Of a stretch of 64,000 nucleotides of DNA, positions 28,247 to 39,560 are shown in pieces. The notes beneath the pieces were generated by a model. The model was not told the origin of the DNA and ran no database searches. It worked only from the letters and a program-made list of their open reading frames with translations. The first letter of the stretch is position 1. Each line of letters begins with the position of its first letter. The stretch is from Candidatus Omnitrophota bacterium (GTDB taxonomy: Bacteria; Omnitrophota; Omnitrophia; Omnitrophales; Aquincolibacteriaceae), in NCBI GenBank assembly GCA_003140935.1, contig PLLJ01000045.1:2767-66766 (forward strand), given 5' to 3'. A program made the position numbers and the translations under genes.

Positions 28247-29383
28247 CTAAAACGTAAGATACGGCCCGGACTTTTTAAGGACCTTCGTCAGTCTGCCAAG
28301 ATCGCCGAGGGACCGGATCCGGGCACCTTCGCTGCGGAAAGCCATGACGCGATCGACCATCACCTGTCCCAAACCCGGGACGCGGAGCATGCGCTGCGGA
28401 TCATCATGATTCAGGTTCACCGGGAAAAACTCCGGATGCGCATGGGCCCACATTTCTTTCGGGTCGATCGTAAGAGAAAGGTTGCCGCCGGGGTCCAGAG
28501 GGATCTCATCCGCTTGAAATCCGTATTTCCGGATAAGCCAATCGGCCTGGTAAAGCCGGTGTTCGCGGACCAGAAGATCCCGGTTGGCGGCCCCCGAGCT
28601 CTCTCCCGGAAGTTCCGGCGCGCCCGCTCCTCTTTGATAAGCGCTGAAGTAGACGCGGGAAAGCCTCAATTGCTTATACAATTTCCAGGAATACCCCAGG
28701 ATCTCCTTGTCCGTTTCCGTAGAGGCCCCCACCACGAACTGGGTGGTCTGCTTGATCCCGGCATACTCCGCTCCTTTCCCGGTCAGTTTGCTGATCAACT
28801 GAATGGGCCGGATAATGTCCCGCAGATAGTTCTTGGTCGTGCTGAGATGTCTGAAATTCGCCTCACCCGCGGTTTCGATATTTAAAGACACGGCCGTCGC
28901 CAATGAAAGACTCTGGCGGATCGCGGTGTCAGACGCTCCGGGAATGACCTTCAGGTGAATGTAACCCCGGAACTGCGACTTGCGCAAATGGAGGGCCACA
29001 CGATTGATACGCTCCATTGTGGTATCCGGGTCCTTTGCGACCGCACTGCTCAAGAAAAGGCCGCTCACCTTCCGCGCGTGATAGTAGGAAAGAAAAGTCC
29101 GGGTCAATTCCTCGGGGCTTAAACTGCATCGCCGGGCGGCCGAACCCGTCCGGAGCGGACAGTATTTACAATTGTTCACGCATTCGTTGGAAAGAAGCGT
29201 CTTGAAGAGGAAGGTCCGCCCGCCATTCGGGAGAATGACCGGATAGATCCATTTGTTTTCCTGGGACCGGCGGCGGTGTTCCTCCGCTCCTGTCGCGCAG
29301 GCGCAAGCTAGGTCATATTGAGCGTCCCGCGCCAGAATGGCGAGCTTTTCTTCCGCATTGGGACTTCTTTGAATGCCGATCAT
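28247..29383 (-). CDS. Radical SAM protein of the putative DNA modification/repair family, with C-terminal helix-hairpin-helix
   Basis: ECVNNCKYC (CxxxCxxC); C-terminal LRVPGLGQVMVDRV HhH. Confidence 0.7.
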   Translation of the reverse strand: MIGIQRSPNAEEKLAILARDAQYDLACACATGAEEHRRRSQENKWIYPVILPNGGRTFLFKTLLSNECVNNCKYCPLRTGSAARRCSLSPEELTRTFLSYYHARKVSGLFLSSAVAKDPDTTMERINRVALHLRKSQFRGYIHLKVIPGASDTAIRQSLSLATAVSLNIETAGEANFRHLSTTKNYLRDIIRPIQLISKLTGKGAEYAGIKQTTQFVVGASTETDKEILGYSWKLYKQLRLSRVYFSAYQRGAGAPELPGESSGAANRDLLVREHRLYQADWLIRKYGFQADEIPLDPGGNLSLTIDPKEMWAHAHPEFFPVNLNHDDPQRMLRVPGLGQVMVDRVMAFRSEGARIRSLGDLGRLTKVLKKSGPYLTF

Positions 29384-31297: not shown

Positions 31298-31834
31298 TTA
31301 TATCTTTTTCGATTCCTGTTCCAGGCGCTTCATTTCTTCCAGGCTCGAGTTCTCTTCCCCGGCAATCTGTTGTCGGTTGTCCCCATCTTTATTCGAGTCC
31401 CGAGGAGCGAGTCCCGAGTCCCGCGGTGTTTCGTTCGAGTCCCGAGCTACGAGTCCCGAGTCCCGTGGTTTTTCGTCCGTCGTCTTGGCCTCAGGGGAAG
31501 AAAGTCCTTTTTTTGAGTCCTGTTCCAGGCGCTTCATTTCTTCCAGACTCGGGTTCTTTTCCCCGGTAGTCTGTGGTCGGTTGTCCCCATCTTTATTCGA
31601 GTCTCGAGCTACGAGTCCCGAGTCCCTGTCTTTATTCGAGTCCCGAGGAGCGAGTCCCGAGTCCCGCGGCGTTTCGTCAGCCGCAGCTTTATTCGCTCGC
31701 CGGGCCGCGATCGCCGTCCTCGCCGCCCGGATGCCAAAGATCGCGTGCGCCGGAGGCGCTCCGAGAAGAAACGTCCCCGTCACCAGTCCCGCCATCACGA
31801 TTTTAAAAGTTTTCGACATCTCCAACCTCCCCAT
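31298..31834 (-). CDS. Secreted tandem-repeat protein (RDSGLAPRDSNKDGDNR repeats), encoded by a ~230-bp x2 tandem DNA repeat built from the GAGTCCCGAGTCCC motif
   Basis: Signal peptide MSKTFKIVMAGLVTGTFLLGAPPAHA; two ~80-aa repeat units; the underlying DNA is a tandem duplication. Confidence 0.5.
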   Translation of the reverse strand: MGRLEMSKTFKIVMAGLVTGTFLLGAPPAHAIFGIRAARTAIAARRANKAAADETPRDSGLAPRDSNKDRDSGLVARDSNKDGDNRPQTTGEKNPSLEEMKRLEQDSKKGLSSPEAKTTDEKPRDSGLVARDSNETPRDSGLAPRDSNKDGDNRQQIAGEENSSLEEMKRLEQESKKI

Positions 31835-31929
31835 GCTGCGTTGTCCACTTAGGAATTTTATTCAACATGCCCTGAGATTAGAACGGCACTATTCTACGAA
31901 GGAACGGTGAAGAATAAAGTACCATTCCT

Positions 31930-32250
31930 CTATTGTTCTTCCCTCGACCCATTGATCTCATCGCCCCGCGAATATCGTGCGGTGTCTCCGGCCTTATAAT
32001 ATTTTGTGACGGAAATGACGAATTCTAAAAAGCCCCGCGCTTTGAGCTCATCCTTGATCTTCTCCAAAAGCTCCTGTCCCGGATCTTTCTGGCTCCATAT
32101 AAAAAAAGAGAGCGTATCTTTCCGGACGGTCAAATGGTCCACATTCTCATGGGCCCTTAAGATCTGTTCGAGAGGGTGCACATCCTCCAGACGCAGAAAA
32201 CGCGACGGGAATTTGATCTCAATGATCGTTAAAGTGTTTAAAAGTTTCAT
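31930..32250 (-). CDS. Small hypothetical protein (106 aa) tightly bracketed by 34-bp direct repeats
   Basis: MKLLNTLTIIEIKFPSRFLRLEDVHPL...; direct repeats at 31886..31919 and 32252..32286. Confidence 0.45.
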   Translation of the reverse strand: MKLLNTLTIIEIKFPSRFLRLEDVHPLEQILRAHENVDHLTVRKDTLSFFIWSQKDPGQELLEKIKDELKARGFLEFVISVTKYYKAGDTARYSRGDEINGSREEQ

Positions 32251-32358
32251 GCGTACTATTCTACGAAGGAACGGCGAAGAATAAAGCCTTTTGCGGATTA
32301 AAACAACAAACGGAGAAATCAAACAATGGAGTCATCCCTTCCCTCTTTTGGATGGCTG

Positions 32359-32970
32359 TCATCTTTTTTTCAGAGTAGCTTTGTCTTTATAGCTTGTACA
32401 TCGCACATAAAAATCAAATTGAATTAAAAAAAGAAGTATTGCGAACATAATTGTTAGAAATAAATTTTTCGTTAAACTTAATAATCCTATCGCTAATAAA
32501 GTCCCATTTAAAAAAGCCATTAAAAATACGAGGATCGGGAAATGATGCAAAAAACCTTCAAAATGTTTTGGCTCCTCATCGGTTATCGGCAACTTCAAGT
32601 ATTTTGTCAGATCGTCTTCCAGACTATTATCTGTGAAATACTTGCGAGTAAGGTTTGCGCTTTTTGCATAAAAAATCATCCGCATCCTAAGATTCATTAT
32701 GATCGCAAGGAAAATAACTCCTATAACAACTAAAAAAAGAACTATATAGACAAATGGCACTGGCAGATTATACAAGTCCCAAGTGATGGAGTTTATTTCT
32801 CTTGTTAATGCTAAGAATAAAGAAAGCGGAATCGCAATAACACCAAAATAATATTTAAATAATTGATAAAGAATTGTATATAAATGCTCGTAAAGCTCAT
32901 GCAAAAGCTTGTGCTCCTGCATCATAAATTCAAATTCTTGCTGAGCAGATAGTTGAGGATGTTTTTCCAT
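32359..32970 (-). CDS. 4-TM membrane protein, last gene of the AT-rich island cassette
   Basis: AT-rich codon usage; four hydrophobic helices; no recognisable family. Confidence 0.6.
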   Translation of the reverse strand: MEKHPQLSAQQEFEFMMQEHKLLHELYEHLYTILYQLFKYYFGVIAIPLSLFLALTREINSITWDLYNLPVPFVYIVLFLVVIGVIFLAIIMNLRMRMIFYAKSANLTRKYFTDNSLEDDLTKYLKLPITDEEPKHFEGFLHHFPILVFLMAFLNGTLLAIGLLSLTKNLFLTIMFAILLFLIQFDFYVRCTSYKDKATLKKR

Positions 32971-32990
32971 TGCTATCTTTAATGGGGTCG

Positions 32991-34070
32991 TTATTTCCTT
33001 CCCAATCTTTCTAATTCCCGGTTGTATGATTCAAAGCCATGTCTTATGACTATGTTTTGCTCTCGTACTTTTCTTCGAAAAAGTTTAACTTGCCAATCCA
33101 TCCAATTCTGATGAATAAAATAATCCGCAGAAGTCTGCGCGACTCTTGGGTTATAGTTATCGAACGTTTGATTTAAAGGCCGATAACGGCAATCAGCGGT
33201 TTGAACTCCCCATTTTTTACATTCTTTAATTTTTTGCAACATTTCATAAAAATCATGTTCGAAGTTAGATATCATGAACACGTACATCTCTTTTGCTCTG
33301 TATCCGGCTTCGATCAGCATCTCGATTTGTTTTTTTATCATTTGGCGCTGGGAATATCCATGATCCCAAGCGATCCTCGGGTTAAGAAAATGTGCCTGCT
33401 TCAACAATTTCGCCAATTCTGGCGTCAAAAGCCTCCCGTCAATTCCGCACTGACTTTCAGAATAGACCGCTCGCCCATTGCACTTCGCATTCTTCAATTC
33501 ATCCAAAATGTCTTTTATATATGGATTAGCTAAAAGATTATTATCGTAAAAAATTACCCTATTGCTACAAATCTCATCTTTGATACTTTTTTTGGGAATA
33601 AATTCGGGCTCGATTTTCCAAGTTCCGCAGAATTTACATTTTCGCACACATCCTCTTGAAGAATGAACGATCTGATAATCGACATCAACTAAACTGTAAT
33701 CTGGCGCAGATGCTTCCGCCTTTGGATCCACGCCAACAAAAACTTTATCGCATTCAGATTGTTTACAGTGGTCTGGCATGAGTGATGCATAAATGCCACC
33801 GACAGTTATATGGGCCCTGGGATAATTCTTTTTGTAGAATTTCACACTATCCCACACGTATTTGGACCAATAGGTAAATAGAGAGGTAATCTTAATTTCA
33901 TCCGGACAAAACTCTCCAACCAGCTTGTCCCCTCGCACAAGTCGGACTTTATCACCATTTGCTTTGTGGTAACTGGCTAGCTTGAGTAAGCCAACAGGCA
34001 AAAAATCTCGGTGATTTTTGCTTTTTGCTGGAATCGGAAAACCTGGTTCCACTAATAATATTTTAGACAT
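32991..34070 (-). CDS. Radical SAM enzyme with N-terminal B12-binding-like (Rossmann) domain
   Basis: KILLVEPGFP...PVGLLKLASYH...HITVGGIYASLMPD (B12-binding-like); SSRGCVRKCKFCGTW (CxxxCxxC). 8-nt overlap with the upstream HD gene. Confidence 0.75.
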   Translation of the reverse strand: MSKILLVEPGFPIPAKSKNHRDFLPVGLLKLASYHKANGDKVRLVRGDKLVGEFCPDEIKITSLFTYWSKYVWDSVKFYKKNYPRAHITVGGIYASLMPDHCKQSECDKVFVGVDPKAEASAPDYSLVDVDYQIVHSSRGCVRKCKFCGTWKIEPEFIPKKSIKDEICSNRVIFYDNNLLANPYIKDILDELKNAKCNGRAVYSESQCGIDGRLLTPELAKLLKQAHFLNPRIAWDHGYSQRQMIKKQIEMLIEAGYRAKEMYVFMISNFEHDFYEMLQKIKECKKWGVQTADCRYRPLNQTFDNYNPRVAQTSADYFIHQNWMDWQVKLFRRKVREQNIVIRHGFESYNRELERLGRK

Positions 34071-35583
34071 TTTTATTTAACAAGGTTTCTGGTAATTTCA
34101 ATTTAATGCCATTAAATTTTATATTATTCATAACATCTTTGTACTCGGGGAGTTTTCGAGCTAATTGCTCAGGATTAGCCCATCGGACTTTAACTTCAGC
34201 GTAATTATCTTCAAAACGGAAACCATCAAAAATGGCAAATTCCGCCGTTTCTTCGAAAGAACCGTTTCTTTTCCAATCATGTATGCTATCTAAAAAAATT
34301 AATAATACGGCGAAAGGGAAACGAGAAATATTAATCGGGAAGACTTCATGCTTTCTGAGTTCTTTCCAGATTCTGCTGTCATGTAGCGCAATAGAAGTAA
34401 CCGCTGGTATAACATGGGTAACAATTAACGGCCTATTGGGACGGCTGGTCACGACTTTTGATTCGCGTAAAACTCTCACAAGAAATTGAAAACATCCTGT
34501 TACTCCATGCGATCTATGTTTTATCAAATGTTCTCGTAGTATGTCCTTGATACTAGAATCCTCATCTTCTGACATTTCGGGCGTCCAATTATTAAGGATA
34601 CGTTCGGAACAACAATGTCGAATGAAGGATTGTAATTGTATCGCAGCCTGCAAATAATCACTTTTATCAGCGATCTTTTCCAAACCAATTAGTTCTATAT
34701 CCTCATTGTACCCGTACATTTCGCCAATTAAGTTGCCTGCTTTTTGCGAAGGGTAACCAATATCATGGAATATAGAAGTAATTAACCAGATGTATTCGAT
34801 GGAAAAATCTTTTTCCCGAGGAAAAACATTTTTATAATATTTTTGAAATTCCGCATAGTATTTATCGATTATTACGCATCCCATTAACATAACTTGAAAA
34901 GAATGCAAATAATGCTCACGCGTGCCCTTCAATAAGGGCTCATAATATTTCAGCCTCAAGTAAGGTTCCGAAGAATAATGAAATCTTTTATTATCAAAGA
35001 TTTTCTTTATCGTCAAATCAACTAATTCGTATTCCTCCTCTGAGATATTTTTTGTTTTTCTTAATCGTGAATATTTCGATACAAAATCCTTTAGGATTTG
35101 GCGGTATGAAATATTGTCCAAATCGCCAACGTACGATAAAAGCTTATTTGGAACATGTCCATGCTCAGAAGCCGCCTTCTTTTTTATTAGTTGTTTATAT
35201 TTTTTTCCACTAATTGCTTTGGCTTTAATATCAAGAAGTACGGAAAGCGAAGAATTGCTTAACTGAATTAGCCCAAATCCATTATTGAAACATTCAGAAA
35301 ATATCTGATCATATTCATATTCCGGCGGAATATAATAATAAAATTCAAAATTTTTAATTTGTTTTTTTGCTTTGATGATTTCTTTAGCGCCATTCGCTGG
35401 AAAAGCATTGCTTGTATTTATATCAATTGAAATTAATTTGGACTTATAGCGGTAAAGAAGATCTGGGCTCCACGCAATACCTCTTAAAATCCGATCTCCA
35501 GCCTTTTGGGAAAGTCTTCGCCAGTTGTATTTTTTCACTAAAATTTTATTGAGTTTATCTAGAAAAATTTCTTTTTTTGACAT
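34063..35583 (-). CDS. HD-domain phosphohydrolase (506 aa) with dNTP-triphosphohydrolase-like motifs and an uncharacterised ~220-aa N-terminal region
   Basis: TREHYLHSFQV (compare dGTPase RLTHSLEV), SIFHDIGYP (HD), later HRSHGV and LDSIHDW. Confidence 0.7.
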   Translation of the reverse strand: MSKKEIFLDKLNKILVKKYNWRRLSQKAGDRILRGIAWSPDLLYRYKSKLISIDINTSNAFPANGAKEIIKAKKQIKNFEFYYYIPPEYEYDQIFSECFNNGFGLIQLSNSSLSVLLDIKAKAISGKKYKQLIKKKAASEHGHVPNKLLSYVGDLDNISYRQILKDFVSKYSRLRKTKNISEEEYELVDLTIKKIFDNKRFHYSSEPYLRLKYYEPLLKGTREHYLHSFQVMLMGCVIIDKYYAEFQKYYKNVFPREKDFSIEYIWLITSIFHDIGYPSQKAGNLIGEMYGYNEDIELIGLEKIADKSDYLQAAIQLQSFIRHCCSERILNNWTPEMSEDEDSSIKDILREHLIKHRSHGVTGCFQFLVRVLRESKVVTSRPNRPLIVTHVIPAVTSIALHDSRIWKELRKHEVFPINISRFPFAVLLIFLDSIHDWKRNGSFEETAEFAIFDGFRFEDNYAEVKVRWANPEQLARKLPEYKDVMNNIKFNGIKLKLPETLLNKNV

Positions 35584-35593
35584 ATATTTGGAA

Positions 35594-36592
35594 TTATTTG
35601 TTATTTATCATTTGGTCAATGGTGTCTCGAAGTTTTTTTAAAGAAACCAAGATTCCTTCCTTTCTTTTTTTATCAGTTTCCTTCTTTAAATCAAACTCAG
35701 ATAGCTGTGAATTTAATTTATTAATATTTTTAATTAATGAACGGCTTGTTGTTTTGCTGGTCAAGGTGGGTATTTGTACTTTTTTAGTTAAGTCGTTTTT
35801 CAAGTCTTCGATTGTATACTCGATGTTTTCAATAAATCTTTTTGCTGAAGCAGCAAAAATTTCGATTTTGTCCAACTTCTTGCAAGTCATGATGGCATCG
35901 GGTATCCAAAAGAATGCGCGAGTTGTCCCAAGAAGACCTTTTTCTGCTTTCGCTATAAGCTTCCCTCTAATTTCTTCCCTCGAGTGATCCTTAAAAGTTT
36001 GGGGTATGTTTTTTTCTAACTGTTCAACAAAATTTTGTTCTATCTGCACAAGGTAACTGTCATCCAGCTTATTCTCCATAACTTTTTCTTGCGTTTCTTT
36101 ATTAAACCTCAAAAGCCGCAATCTATCTTCGACCTTTTTTCCGTCCATTTTGGTTATCTTTGCTATTTCGCCAATTAGGTCTTGATCGGTTATCGATTTG
36201 TTTTTTCTTTTTATCAAATCAACATAGAATTTTAGCGCTTGGGCTTGCGCCATCGGCTCCCATTGTTCTCTCAGCATGTGAATTTGAAACATTCGTTTTA
36301 AGCCTTCCCCTTGGGCTTTGGCTTTTTTAATGGCCAACACATGGATGGGCACGCCTTCTCGTTTAACTTTTTGAGCAGCTTTAAGCCGTCTTTCGCCATC
36401 GAGCAAAATATATTTTTTGCCTTTTTTGCTATCGTTTTTAAAAACGATCAAAGGCACCATGACTCCAAATTGCCGAATGGATTCCTCTAGTGCTATGAAA
36501 TCCTTATCCTCATAATCCTGGCCTCTGGGATTATCTGGATTGAAAGCTATATCATTAGGAGAAACATACCTGATCTGCTCGTTTTTATTCAT
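35594..36592 (-). CDS. ParB/Sulfiredoxin-like N-terminal domain protein with Lys-rich helical C-terminal half
   Basis: VSPNDIAFNPDNPR...LEESIRQFGVMVPLIV...YILLDGERRLKAAQ (ParB box motifs); GGAGG RBS 6 nt upstream. Confidence 0.75.
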   Translation of the reverse strand: MNKNEQIRYVSPNDIAFNPDNPRGQDYEDKDFIALEESIRQFGVMVPLIVFKNDSKKGKKYILLDGERRLKAAQKVKREGVPIHVLAIKKAKAQGEGLKRMFQIHMLREQWEPMAQAQALKFYVDLIKRKNKSITDQDLIGEIAKITKMDGKKVEDRLRLLRFNKETQEKVMENKLDDSYLVQIEQNFVEQLEKNIPQTFKDHSREEIRGKLIAKAEKGLLGTTRAFFWIPDAIMTCKKLDKIEIFAASAKRFIENIEYTIEDLKNDLTKKVQIPTLTSKTTSRSLIKNINKLNSQLSEFDLKKETDKKRKEGILVSLKKLRDTIDQMINNK

Positions 36593-36761
36593 TCTATACC
36601 TCCATTTATTCCATAAATCATTTAAGATTTTTTATCTTTGTAGACGGAATCGATCCTACTTTCTTTCGTAAGTCAACGGAACACCGTCTGGGGAAAGACG
36701 TTAACTCCCCAATCTTATAGACGCACTCTTCGTTACAGGCAAGGGGAAAAAAGAAACCGCC

Positions 36762-37211
36762 TCAAAGATATAAGGCGCAGACGAAGGCGAGGGCGCCGGC
36801 GACGAGGTTGGCCAGGGTGCCGATGAGCCAGCGCTGGAGGTTATAGGCGGCGATCCGGTTCCTCGCGCTCCAATAGTACATCGGGTCGAGGCCTTCGATA
36901 TGCTCCGGCGTTTTGACGATCAACGCCCACGCCACCCATTTGGAAACGAGCTTGAACGCGAGCCACCCGACGATGATCCTGGCGGAATGCGTGGTGAACG
37001 CGATATAGAACAGGACCACTTCGAGAAGCCCGAGGACTTTGCCGAAGACCGGGCTTACCTGGCCGATGAGGAACGCCTTGGCCAGCTTCTCGTCCACGCA
37101 GTGGTAGTCTTCGCGCTTTCTCAGGAGCCTGAAGAGCCCGCGGATCGCGAACGACAGGAGCACGGCGACGGACAAACCCACCACAAAATGTTTCAGCGCC
37201 AGAAGCTGCAT
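36762..37211 (-). CDS. Membrane protein, unknown (GC-rich host-like composition resumes)
   Basis: Three or four TM helices. Confidence 0.5.
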   Translation of the reverse strand: MQLLALKHFVVGLSVAVLLSFAIRGLFRLLRKREDYHCVDEKLAKAFLIGQVSPVFGKVLGLLEVVLFYIAFTTHSARIIVGWLAFKLVSKWVAWALIVKTPEHIEGLDPMYYWSARNRIAAYNLQRWLIGTLANLVAGALAFVCALYL

Positions 37212-38207: not shown

Positions 38208-39560
38208 TCACCTTTGCATACGAACAGCGTGCCCTTTTTCCAGGAGTTCCTGGTTCACGTAAGTCCCGCCGGCCCAAATGTCGACCAGGTACCTGTCGTA
38301 TTTGTCGGACTTGACGGTCTTGATGAGGATTTGCGCGCTGATTTTTCCATCCGCCATTTTCAACATCTTCTCCATGGCTTCTTTCGCTTCTTTTCCTTCC
38401 TTGCTCACGAGCTCGGGGGCGTCGAGACCGCGCAGGCGCAGGGTCTGCACGCTGCGCACGCCGAAGCCCAGATCGACCACCGCTTCGATCGTGTCGCCGT
38501 CGAGAATGCGGAACACCCAGGCGCGGTAAGTAAAAAGGTCGGCGGAGGTCCGTTTCGAGAGTTTGATCAGATCCGAGGGCGCGGAACCCGCTCCCGGGAA
38601 CGCGGGCATCACTTCGATGATCGCCCCTTCCTTGAAACGGAGGTCCCGGGACGTCCGGTAATAATTGGAGAACCCGAGGTCGATCACCGCCTTGCCGGTC
38701 TCGGGGCCCGCGGCGGCTTTGACGATCTTATAAGTCCCGGGCTTCCCCGGCTTGGCCGTGAGCGGGGTTTCTTTCACCGGCGCCGGCGCCTCATTTTTCG
38801 CGGCCTTGCGCTTTTTCACTTCTTCACGTACCTGGTCGCGGGTCCAGTTTTCTTTTTCAGCCATGGCCGCGACCTCGTCTTGCTCCTTGATATCATTCAG
38901 CGAAAGAAGCTCCTCATAATGGCTCCAGCTCAATTTTCCCGCGGGCGGGGAAATCGGGTAATCGCGGGCGAACTGAAGCATGGCGTACAGCTGGGTCTCG
39001 CTGATGGGCAAGTCTCCGGACAATCTTAAGATCACCTGCTTGCCGTAATCCGCGCGCTCCTTGTGCTGGAGCACGTGCTCGTCGATCAGTTTGCCGATCT
39101 CCCACGCCTCGCGGACTTTTTCCTGTTGGGCGGCCTGCTCCACACGGGCCTCGCTGGCCGCGTGGGCCTTGCGAATGGCGGCGACGAGCTGCTCGTAAGT
39201 TCCAACCTGGGTCGCGAGCACTGTAGACGATGGTCCCAAATCGTCACCGGGCCGTGCCTGTTCACGGCGCTCTTCAGCCGTCCCTGTGGGACTGGGAACA
39301 GGCGAGGTCTGGACCTGCGGCGCGGGCACTGTAGACGATTGTCCCAGATCGTCACTGTGCCGTGCCTGTTCACTGGGAACAGGTGCGGGGACCGGCGGGT
39401 TCATCGAAGGGACCTGCCCTGAGCTTGCCGAAGGGGCCTGCGAAGACGAGGACTTCAAGTCCCCGCGAGCGTGCTGAGGAACCGGGTCCTCAGCCTGCAA
39501 GGACGGGGATATCCAGAGGAGCGTGAGGAAAATACCGAGGGTGATCGTCGTCGTCTTCAT
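38208..39560 (-). CDS. Secreted multidomain protein: signal peptide, low-complexity duplicated segment, YhcG/DUF1016-N-like helical domain, and C-terminal staphylococcal-nuclease (SNase)-like domain
   Basis: MKTTTITLGIFLTLLWISPSLQA signal. Two copies of ARxxDDLGxSSTVxAxQV. SNase-like GDTIEAVVDLGFGV...LRGLDAPE...DKYDRYLVDIWAGG. Confidence 0.65.
   Translation of the reverse strand: MKTTTITLGIFLTLLWISPSLQAEDPVPQHARGDLKSSSSQAPSASSGQVPSMNPPVPAPVPSEQARHSDDLGQSSTVPAPQVQTSPVPSPTGTAEERREQARPGDDLGPSSTVLATQVGTYEQLVAAIRKAHAASEARVEQAAQQEKVREAWEIGKLIDEHVLQHKERADYGKQVILRLSGDLPISETQLYAMLQFARDYPISPPAGKLSWSHYEELLSLNDIKEQDEVAAMAEKENWTRDQVREEVKKRKAAKNEAPAPVKETPLTAKPGKPGTYKIVKAAAGPETGKAVIDLGFSNYYRTSRDLRFKEGAIIEVMPAFPGAGSAPSDLIKLSKRTSADLFTYRAWVFRILDGDTIEAVVDLGFGVRSVQTLRLRGLDAPELVSKEGKEAKEAMEKMLKMADGKISAQILIKTVKSDKYDRYLVDIWAGGTYVNQELLEKGHAVRMQR

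Follow-up and report, generated by a model that had tools for sequence, protein, structure and literature searches.

What does a compact, AT-rich island of four genes, one of them encoding a radical S-adenosylmethionine (SAM) enzyme (rSAM), do for the bacterium that carries it? The island lies in a 64,000-nucleotide (nt) stretch of DNA from a Candidatus Omnitrophota bacterium (assembly GCA_003140935.1, contig PLLJ01000045.1, positions 2,767 to 66,766 of the forward strand), which we call the window. A first-pass annotation of the sequence had considered three defense logics for it: nucleotide depletion, viperin-like antiviral nucleotides, and nucleic-acid modification. Our analysis favors the last of these, and on balance we lean toward the island being a mobile restriction-modification (R-M)-like defense cassette in which the rSAM is the DNA-marking subunit. 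A broader proposal, to which we give slightly less than even credence, is that enzymes of the rSAM family make a covalent change to DNA that has not been described before, such as methylation at an unactivated or sp2 carbon of a base, and that this change is the self mark of a pan-prokaryotic class of restriction systems of the DISARM, Pbe, GHKL, ParB-nuclease and HerA types, spread over bacteria, archaea and some phages.

The island and its four genes, lengths being given in amino acids (aa), are as follows:

32323-36700: AT-rich block with the four genes, delimited by its GC content and third-codon-position GC content (GC3)
35594-36592, minus strand: ParB/Noc-type protein, 332 aa, with a ParB_N nucleoside triphosphate (NTP)-binding domain, a helix-turn-helix (HTH) region and a helical C-terminus
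34063-35583, minus strand: two-domain nuclease candidate, 506 aa, with a PD-(D/E)xK fold at residues ~1-120 and an HD domain at ~220-440
32991-34070, minus strand: rSAM, 359 aa, with a B12-binding-type Rossmann N-domain and a putative rSAM barrel
32359-32970, minus strand: protein of 203 aa with four hydrophobic segments (the four-transmembrane, or 4-TM, protein), GC3 0.31, of island composition

All four genes lie on the minus strand and are tightly packed: a 10-nt spacer separates the ParB gene from that of the 506-aa protein, the latter overlaps the rSAM gene by 8 nt, and 20 nt separate the rSAM and 4-TM genes. The block from 32323 to 36700 has a GC content of 35.8%, compared with 53.5% over the window, and is the minimum among all 4.4-kb windows (runner-up outside the island, 49.5%; standard deviation, 4.8%). 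Codon usage shifts with it, GC3 being 0.31-0.38 in the four island genes and 0.74-0.84 in flanking host genes such as argH. The ArgH protein falls, at 90% identity or more, into a cluster with proteins from metagenome-assembled genomes of Omnitrophota, which makes an Omnitrophota host probable. Thus, the close coupling and the large drop in GC content described in the first-pass annotation are real, while its estimate of 40% versus 60% was slightly off.

The ParB, 506-aa and rSAM genes recur, in the same order and with the same junctions, in six unrelated contexts, the window included. One is a conjugative element of Ca. Velamenicoccus archaeovorus, where the three proteins share 76/74/74% amino-acid identity with ours. 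Two are defense islands, each continuing into a different type I R-M operon; one also holds HEPN/MNT, AbiEii and HTH_17 genes, the other an HTH_17 gene and a nuclease. The remaining two copies are inserted among housekeeping genes. The ParB protein, the restriction endonuclease (REase)-HD protein and the rSAM therefore form a conserved, translationally coupled trio. Because the 4-TM gene is absent from all five trio contexts beyond the window, the conserved unit comprises three genes, and the four-gene cassette of the first-pass annotation has to be trimmed accordingly. With HEPN/MNT, AbiEii, type I R-M and conjugation genes as its neighbors elsewhere, the cassette is not a housekeeping or biosynthetic cluster, and the shift in composition, together with the presence of the same trio at about 75% identity in the Velamenicoccus element and in four other unrelated contexts, establishes that the island was horizontally acquired. 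Both points uphold what had been claimed.

In the two defense islands the type I R-M operon is complete, differs between the islands, and begins 57-155 nt past the trio (L093, 9267-14256; L109, 7860-13665), with an RNase HII-like gene between hsdM and hsdS in L109. Trio and operon may together form a composite system, not a chance packing. A small HTH_17 (excisionase-like) gene stands 5' of the trio in three contexts (L001, 5270-5386; L093, 5222-5392; L109, 3010-3186) and is not found in the window; it may be a cassette regulator or a remnant of a mobile element.

The rSAM reaches far beyond the trio. A homologue search returned 2400 proteins. The top 120 share 65-78% identity with the rSAM of the window, even though their sources include Elusimicrobiota, Nanoarchaeota, Zixibacteria, Atribacterota, Omnitrophota, Ignavibacteria, Saccharibacteria and other groups; over more than 25 phyla, identity stays at 50-78%. 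An exhaustive HMMER search of 1.84 billion cluster representatives recovered 187 clusters with E<=1e-30, a number that grows to 1029 at a threshold of E<=1e-10, and a scan of one genome per species located 80 loci that span over 25 phyla of bacteria and archaea, among them the candidate phyla radiation (CPR), DPANN, Asgard archaea and methanogens. Within the clade of at least 65% identity, the rSAM genes always have 32-42% GC whatever the host, which fits frequent transfer. In 55 of 78 non-redundant loci a co-directional gene lies no more than 60 nt upstream, often with a 4-nt overlap, and in these 78 loci the rSAM is usually the terminal gene of its operon. The upstream genes fall into the following modules:

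GHKL (HATPase_c_3) ATPase, usually with a protein of ~330 aa: 17 or more loci
Long ParB (450-500 aa): 15-17 loci
PbeA (3e-225), PbeC (9e-130) and a protein of ~145 aa: 8-12 loci
DrmA/DrmB/DrmC/DrmE (DISARM): 9 loci
ParB-like protein, SNF2 protein (ZorD/DpdE-like) and a further ParB-like protein: 5 loci
HsdM/HsdS with a HAS-barrel/HerA-like protein: 2-3 loci
HerA-type: 2-3 loci
ParB and REase-HD protein (the trio): the window and five other contexts

The rSAM thus pairs with no fewer than eight restriction-type modules and is the invariant core of a very large, modular, pan-prokaryotic family of operons that resemble restriction systems. Several of these modules occur inside a single rSAM clade of at least 70% identity, so the rSAM behaves as a plug-in module. 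When we compared the proteins immediately 5' of the rSAM profile against profile, the only relations found were between the long ParB and the ParB-like family c3, and between families c7 and c9. A hidden adaptor common to the upstream genes was thereby rejected, and the 506-aa protein showed no relation to the other upstream proteins. Some operons reach past the rSAM gene: in two GHKL-type loci (L008 and L014) the next genes encode a conserved protein of 509 aa, which carries a (D/N/S)PP(Y/F/W) motif of the N6-methylase type, and one of 426-444 aa. In a Thorarchaeota locus (L056, 8001-9400 and the next gene), two tandem rSAM paralogues of 396 and 459 aa lie beside a divergent c34-c35-HerA module.

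What position does the rSAM hold in these operons? DISARM operons normally end with a methylase, and a methylase motif is visible in only a few of the rSAM operons. More generally, the usual partners of DISARM and Pbe are methylases or phosphorothioate genes, those reported for Pbe/CxC-ABC systems being phosphorothioate genes or cytosine methylases (PMC10853773). Because the rSAM stands where these partners are otherwise found, it occupies the modification slot. The island itself encodes a nuclease-fold protein, and PADLOC, NCBIfam and Pfam detect no SAM-dependent methyltransferase in it; we propose that the rSAM replaces the methylase of a classical R-M system.

The CX3CX2C motif of the rSAM (C141/C145/C148) is invariant both among 24 and among 79 members of the family, and the N-terminal domain is a Rossmann-like B12-binding domain, as the first-pass annotation had recognized. 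In its fold the enzyme is of the class-B/AprD4/TsrM type. Most characterized class-B rSAM enzymes are C-methylases. Two further cysteines, C284 and C294, are invariant in the window's rSAM family and bear a possible resemblance to the cysteines that RlmN/Cfr use in catalysis. Family profiles run against the sequences of the PDB returned no relative for either the rSAM or the 506-aa protein.

An RNA- or protein-modifying enzyme offers a different account, in which the rSAM would act on RNA or protein in the manner of MiaB, RimO or MgmA, the ParB would be an ordinary partition protein, and the linkage to nucleases would be incidental packing. We regard this as very improbable. The rSAM has neither a TRAM domain nor the MiaB-type N-terminal cysteine triad, and ParA is missing from the island and from all six trio contexts, so that the ParB protein does not belong to a ParABS system. 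Nor does incidental packing sit easily with overlaps of 4 to 8 nt, with the recurrence of the linkage in six contexts, or with the gene fusions found in relatives.

The ParB protein itself matches Pfam ParB_N with 47.7 bits (cut-off 26.3; 1.6e-12) and carries the GERRLKAAQ box, in line with the ParB fold first assigned to it; its NCBIfam noc/parB domain matches fall under the equivalog cut-offs. Residues 8-177 align with CTP-binding Spo0J (6sdk), and the N-domain and HTH region also align with Noc, the GERRLKAA box lying within the aligned part. With 33-37% identity, it is related to the long ParB proteins immediately 5' of the rSAM in 15-17 other loci. We predict it to be a DNA-loading or sensing partner.

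The 506-aa protein had been annotated as an HD phosphohydrolase with dGTPase/SAMHD1-like motifs. The HD motifs are indeed conserved (H224, H227, H273-D274, H359, H401-D402 and D432), and the H...HD...D metal-binding motif in an all-helical fold places this part in the HD superfamily. They would suit a cassette in which the HD protein depletes (deoxy)nucleoside triphosphates ((d)NTPs) like SAMHD1 or dGTPase, with the ParB as nucleotide sensor and the rSAM as an accessory. We rate such a scheme as quite unlikely: the protein matches no dGTPase/SAMHD1 family model and lacks the architecture of a stand-alone dNTPase. Rather, its N-terminal part contains the alpha-beta-beta-beta-alpha-beta core of the PD-(D/E)xK restriction-endonuclease fold, in which D41 and E68 are invariant and D54 is kept in at least 90% of members, the lysine of the D...(D/E)xK signature not having been placed. 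The model points to a candidate nuclease that joins an REase fold to an HD domain, not to a plain dGTPase.

The 4-TM protein has only four homologues, and these relatives, too, are neighbors of the rSAM, in an operon of another kind. The closest of them (P0133, in loci L105/L106; 55% identical) overlaps both a 1096-aa type IIG-like methylase gene upstream and a downstream 75%-identity member of the rSAM family. The 4-TM protein is thus a rare but recurrent, lineage-specific accessory of the rSAM.

Taken together, these assignments suggest how the cassette could work. The rSAM would place a covalent mark on the cell's own DNA by means of a 5'-deoxyadenosyl radical, cobalamin possibly carrying the methyl group; the likeliest mark would be a C-methylation or a related base modification, with cytosine as the best guess. 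The ParB/Noc-type protein would bind NTP and DNA and act as an NTP-gated clamp or loader that brings the rSAM, or the nuclease, onto DNA. The PD-(D/E)xK and HD protein would cut or degrade unmarked DNA, and the 4-TM protein may be an optional accessory serving as anchor, regulator or back-up effector. There are precedents for single steps: the ParB-like NTPase DpdB is required for the DNA-modifying DpdA, and DndB and SspE have comparable ParB-fold roles in phosphorothioate systems (PMC10164549), while spore photoproduct lyase and gp53 of phage M6 are rSAM enzymes that act on DNA (PMC8989533).

Relatives of the cassette join the same three ingredients in other ways. The C-terminal domain of the long ParB proteins is Pfam REase_DpnII-MboI (3.7e-27 in L062), with its signature kept in at least 90% of members, so that the commonest two-gene form, a ParB-nuclease followed by the rSAM, is itself an R+M unit. 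An alternative assignment of this domain to HEPN, based on an Rx4H-like motif, was rejected in favor of the Pfam match. A sister subfamily, 34% identical to the window rSAM, keeps the motifs TSLFTY, GGI.A.LMPD, RGC.RKC.FC and F.DNN.LA.P. In one of its members (P0286, 777 aa), which has a plasmid- or phage-like context, the rSAM is fused to a C5 cytosine DNA methylase (PF00145, 5e-57). Another (P0251) carries a C-terminal ParB-like domain (VEGNRRIASL; ParB_N 0.0018), with an Mrr_cat nuclease 1 nt downstream, and P0295 has a small C5-methylase-like N-terminus (FSGTG, PPCQRFS; 0.0026). By these domain matches, rSAM, ParB fold and restriction-type nuclease appear to recur together as separate genes (as in the window), as ParB-nuclease plus rSAM, and as rSAM-ParB plus nuclease.

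Copies in phages are rare: among 2.9 million viral contigs only 7 hold relatives of the rSAM, and a viral fold search yielded only fold-level class-B rSAMs in uncultured phages. The closest phage copies are orphans beside the terminase large subunit or a phage DNA methylase, the same orphan behavior as that of phage anti-restriction methylases. Several members of the rSAM family (P0284, P0299, P0301 and P0256) contain inteins with LAGLIDADG or HNH homing endonucleases near the cluster-binding region; such inteins are unusual in proteins other than those of replication and repair.

Might the cassette then serve a mobile element and not the cell? As a stealth or addiction module, the ParB protein and the rSAM would modify the DNA of the element or of the recipient to evade restriction, and the nuclease would enforce retention. 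The trio inside the Velamenicoccus conjugative element, the HTH_17 gene upstream of three copies, the orphan relatives carried by phages and by a contig of plasmid- or phage-like character, and the inteins of several family members all speak for this idea. Against it stand the lack of mobility genes in the window island and in two other trio contexts, and the chromosomal location of most family members, which are coupled to DISARM, Pbe or GHKL modules. The idea also overlaps with that of an R-M-like defense cassette, since R-M systems are themselves addictive, and differs from it mainly in the beneficiary. We consider it unlikely, if less so than nucleotide depletion.

A further possibility is that the rSAM is an effector, which makes an antiviral nucleotide or small molecule in the manner of viperin, or directly damages nucleic acid through radical chemistry, once its ParB and nuclease partners have sensed infection. 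Viperins are rSAM antiviral effectors, and the rSAM stays constant while the putative sensors vary, as would be expected of a shared effector. Its extreme conservation would also suit a fixed small-molecule chemistry, and OpnA of the Ophion system is an rSAM antiviral effector (bioRxiv 10.1101/2025.09.30.679545). Viperins and the dGTPase/SAMHD1 defenses resemble the cassette in placing an rSAM and an HD protein, respectively, in a defense context. By contrast, the cassette has no PADLOC match to either, its folds are those of a class-B rSAM and of an HD nuclease with an REase domain, and the rSAM does not fit the fold or models of prokaryotic viperins (pVip). Of the three logics first considered, nucleic-acid modification is thus favored, and the viperin-like one does not carry over to an rSAM of the class-B/AprD4/TsrM type. 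An effector role strikes us as improbable, though it is the strongest of the competing explanations.

Several points weigh against the rSAM as a DNA-marking subunit. The case for DNA as its substrate comes solely from gene context and fusions; the one solid methylase fusion belongs to the sister subfamily, which is without the invariant C284/C294, and the ParB-like domain of P0251 and the small methylase of P0295 fall under Pfam thresholds. The top structural match is AprD4, a B12-independent dehydratase with the same N-domain, and the family is common in CPR and DPANN, which are generally not cobalamin makers, so that cofactor and chemistry are putative. Some rSAM operons contain an N6 methylase (HsdM/HsdS or type IIG-like); in these, the rSAM would either add another mark to the first or have a different function. 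The DISARM-type loci are truncated 5' of DrmA, where a methylase may lie, and the open reading frames (ORFs) of related loci were called by a simple longest-ORF rule. Finally, the model of the 506-aa protein is of moderate confidence (predicted local distance difference test score, 64), with the catalytic residues of its PD-(D/E)xK domain not assigned.

How does an R-M-like cassette with an rSAM as its marker relate to known systems? By analogy it would work like DISARM, Dnd/Pbe and Dpd, which combine modification and restriction modules with a ParB-fold helper, but as the window lacks the genes that define these systems, the cassette is not itself one of them. Like the proposed cassette, DISARM marks the cell's own DNA and attacks DNA without the mark, and rSAM relatives of 52-57% identity end DrmA-DrmB-DrmC-DrmE operons, where the DrmM methylase usually sits. 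The window differs in having no Drm genes and a putative rSAM marker in place of a SAM-dependent methyltransferase. The Dnd/Ssp/Pbe systems are likewise R-M-like, use a non-canonical modification and have the ParB-fold partners DndB and SspE (PMC10164549), and in 8-12 loci the rSAM is the last gene of PbeA/PbeC operons. By contrast, the window lacks DndA/C/D/E and SspABCD, its rSAM is unrelated to DndC, and the PADLOC models of Dnd/Ssp/Pbe gave only a chance-level PbeC match to an unrelated small ORF (E 0.02) among the window proteins. In Dpd, the modification enzyme DpdA, which depends on DpdB, works with SNF2-type restriction proteins, and models for DpdE and ZorD both match the SNF2 partner that accompanies the rSAM in one type of operon. 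Here the differences are the absence of tRNA-guanine transglycosylase (TGT) or preQ0 genes and the type of the window ParB, which is of the Spo0J/Noc type (GERRxxA box) and not of the DGQQR type.

Among rSAM enzymes, the class-B members TsrM, TokK, CysS and MgmA and the look-alike AprD4 are only 10-15% identical to the window rSAM, which is much smaller (~360 aa). The substrates of the known members are small molecules or peptides and not DNA, and cobalamin use by the window rSAM is putative. RlmN/Cfr, MiaB, spore photoproduct lyase and M6 gp53 share radical chemistry on polynucleotide bases, with DNA as substrate for the last two; they belong to other rSAM classes, and none is a standing partner of restriction modules. 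PADLOC v2, NCBIfam and Pfam gave no defense-system model for six local proteins, nor do they contain a family specific to the rSAM, the 506-aa or the 4-TM protein. The rSAM defense systems that we found in the literature are Ophion, of different architecture (rSAM, PHP and PRTase), and a Thermus-phage rSAM/DUF483 module. Full-text literature searches found no description of this rSAM with restriction modules, an earlier mention in Krishnan et al. 2020 (PMC7544218) not being excluded. The novelty would lie in a new type of modification enzyme within R-M-like defense.

The surroundings of the island bear on its edges. Adjoining features are:

36758-36777, minus strand: terminator-like hairpin followed by a T-run, overlapping the stop codon of the upstream host gene at 36762-37211
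31930-32250, minus strand: ORF of 106 aa, outside the cassette, with an intermediate GC3 (0.57) and flanked by a 32-nt direct repeat
31298-31834, minus strand: repeat protein of 178 aa with a signal-peptide-like N-terminus and 39-42-nt tandem repeats

The hairpin is the right edge of the island, the GC content climbing to 0.58 past it. No tRNA, integrase or Rfam element was found in or beside the island, nor any direct repeat joining its two ends, and a promoter and terminator scan was uninformative (10 promoter-like sites versus 14.7 expected). Two supposed signs of mobility dissolve on inspection. The 34-bp repeats of the first-pass annotation are 32 nt long and 97% identical (31888-31919 and 32255-32286), and both copies lie outside the low-GC block, not at its two ends, each 5' of one of two consecutive minus-strand genes, those of the 106-aa ORF and the repeat protein. 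The two copies might act as an operator or promoter element common to both genes, or be the scar of a duplication. The "repeat-rich junction" (31.2-31.7 kb) is the interior of the repeat-protein ORF, whose units read RDSGL.PRDSNKDGDN. This protein is 92 aa or 178 aa long in related strains (L088 versus L089/L090), so the repeat number varies between strains. No counterpart of the 106-aa ORF was found in the related loci.

Upstream of the island, at a distance of two genes, a 450-aa protein (38208-39560, minus strand) combines a DUF1016_N domain (YhcG-type nuclease N-terminus) with an SNase domain, its N-terminal half being of low complexity; it may be a further nuclease or defense gene. On the other side, between 27000 and 31000, lies a second, milder GC dip (0.42-0.50; GC3 0.46-0.68) with a 335-aa ORF, a different radical SAM protein of 378 aa (28247-29383), a hemerythrin and a DoxX gene. 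This stretch could be an older acquired region beside the island.

Even if the rSAM had another substrate, a single enzyme that joins at least eight restriction modules at 50-78% identity across the domains of life is a clear and testable lead. If the rSAM does mark DNA, it would represent a fourth chemistry of prokaryotic epigenetic self-labeling, after methylation, phosphorothioation and 7-deazaguanine, and would provide the toolbox with a compact (~360 aa) DNA-acting radical enzyme. It would also imply a new modified base that escapes present sequencing pipelines, and would explain how the many methylase-less DISARM-, Pbe- and GHKL-type operons discriminate self from non-self.

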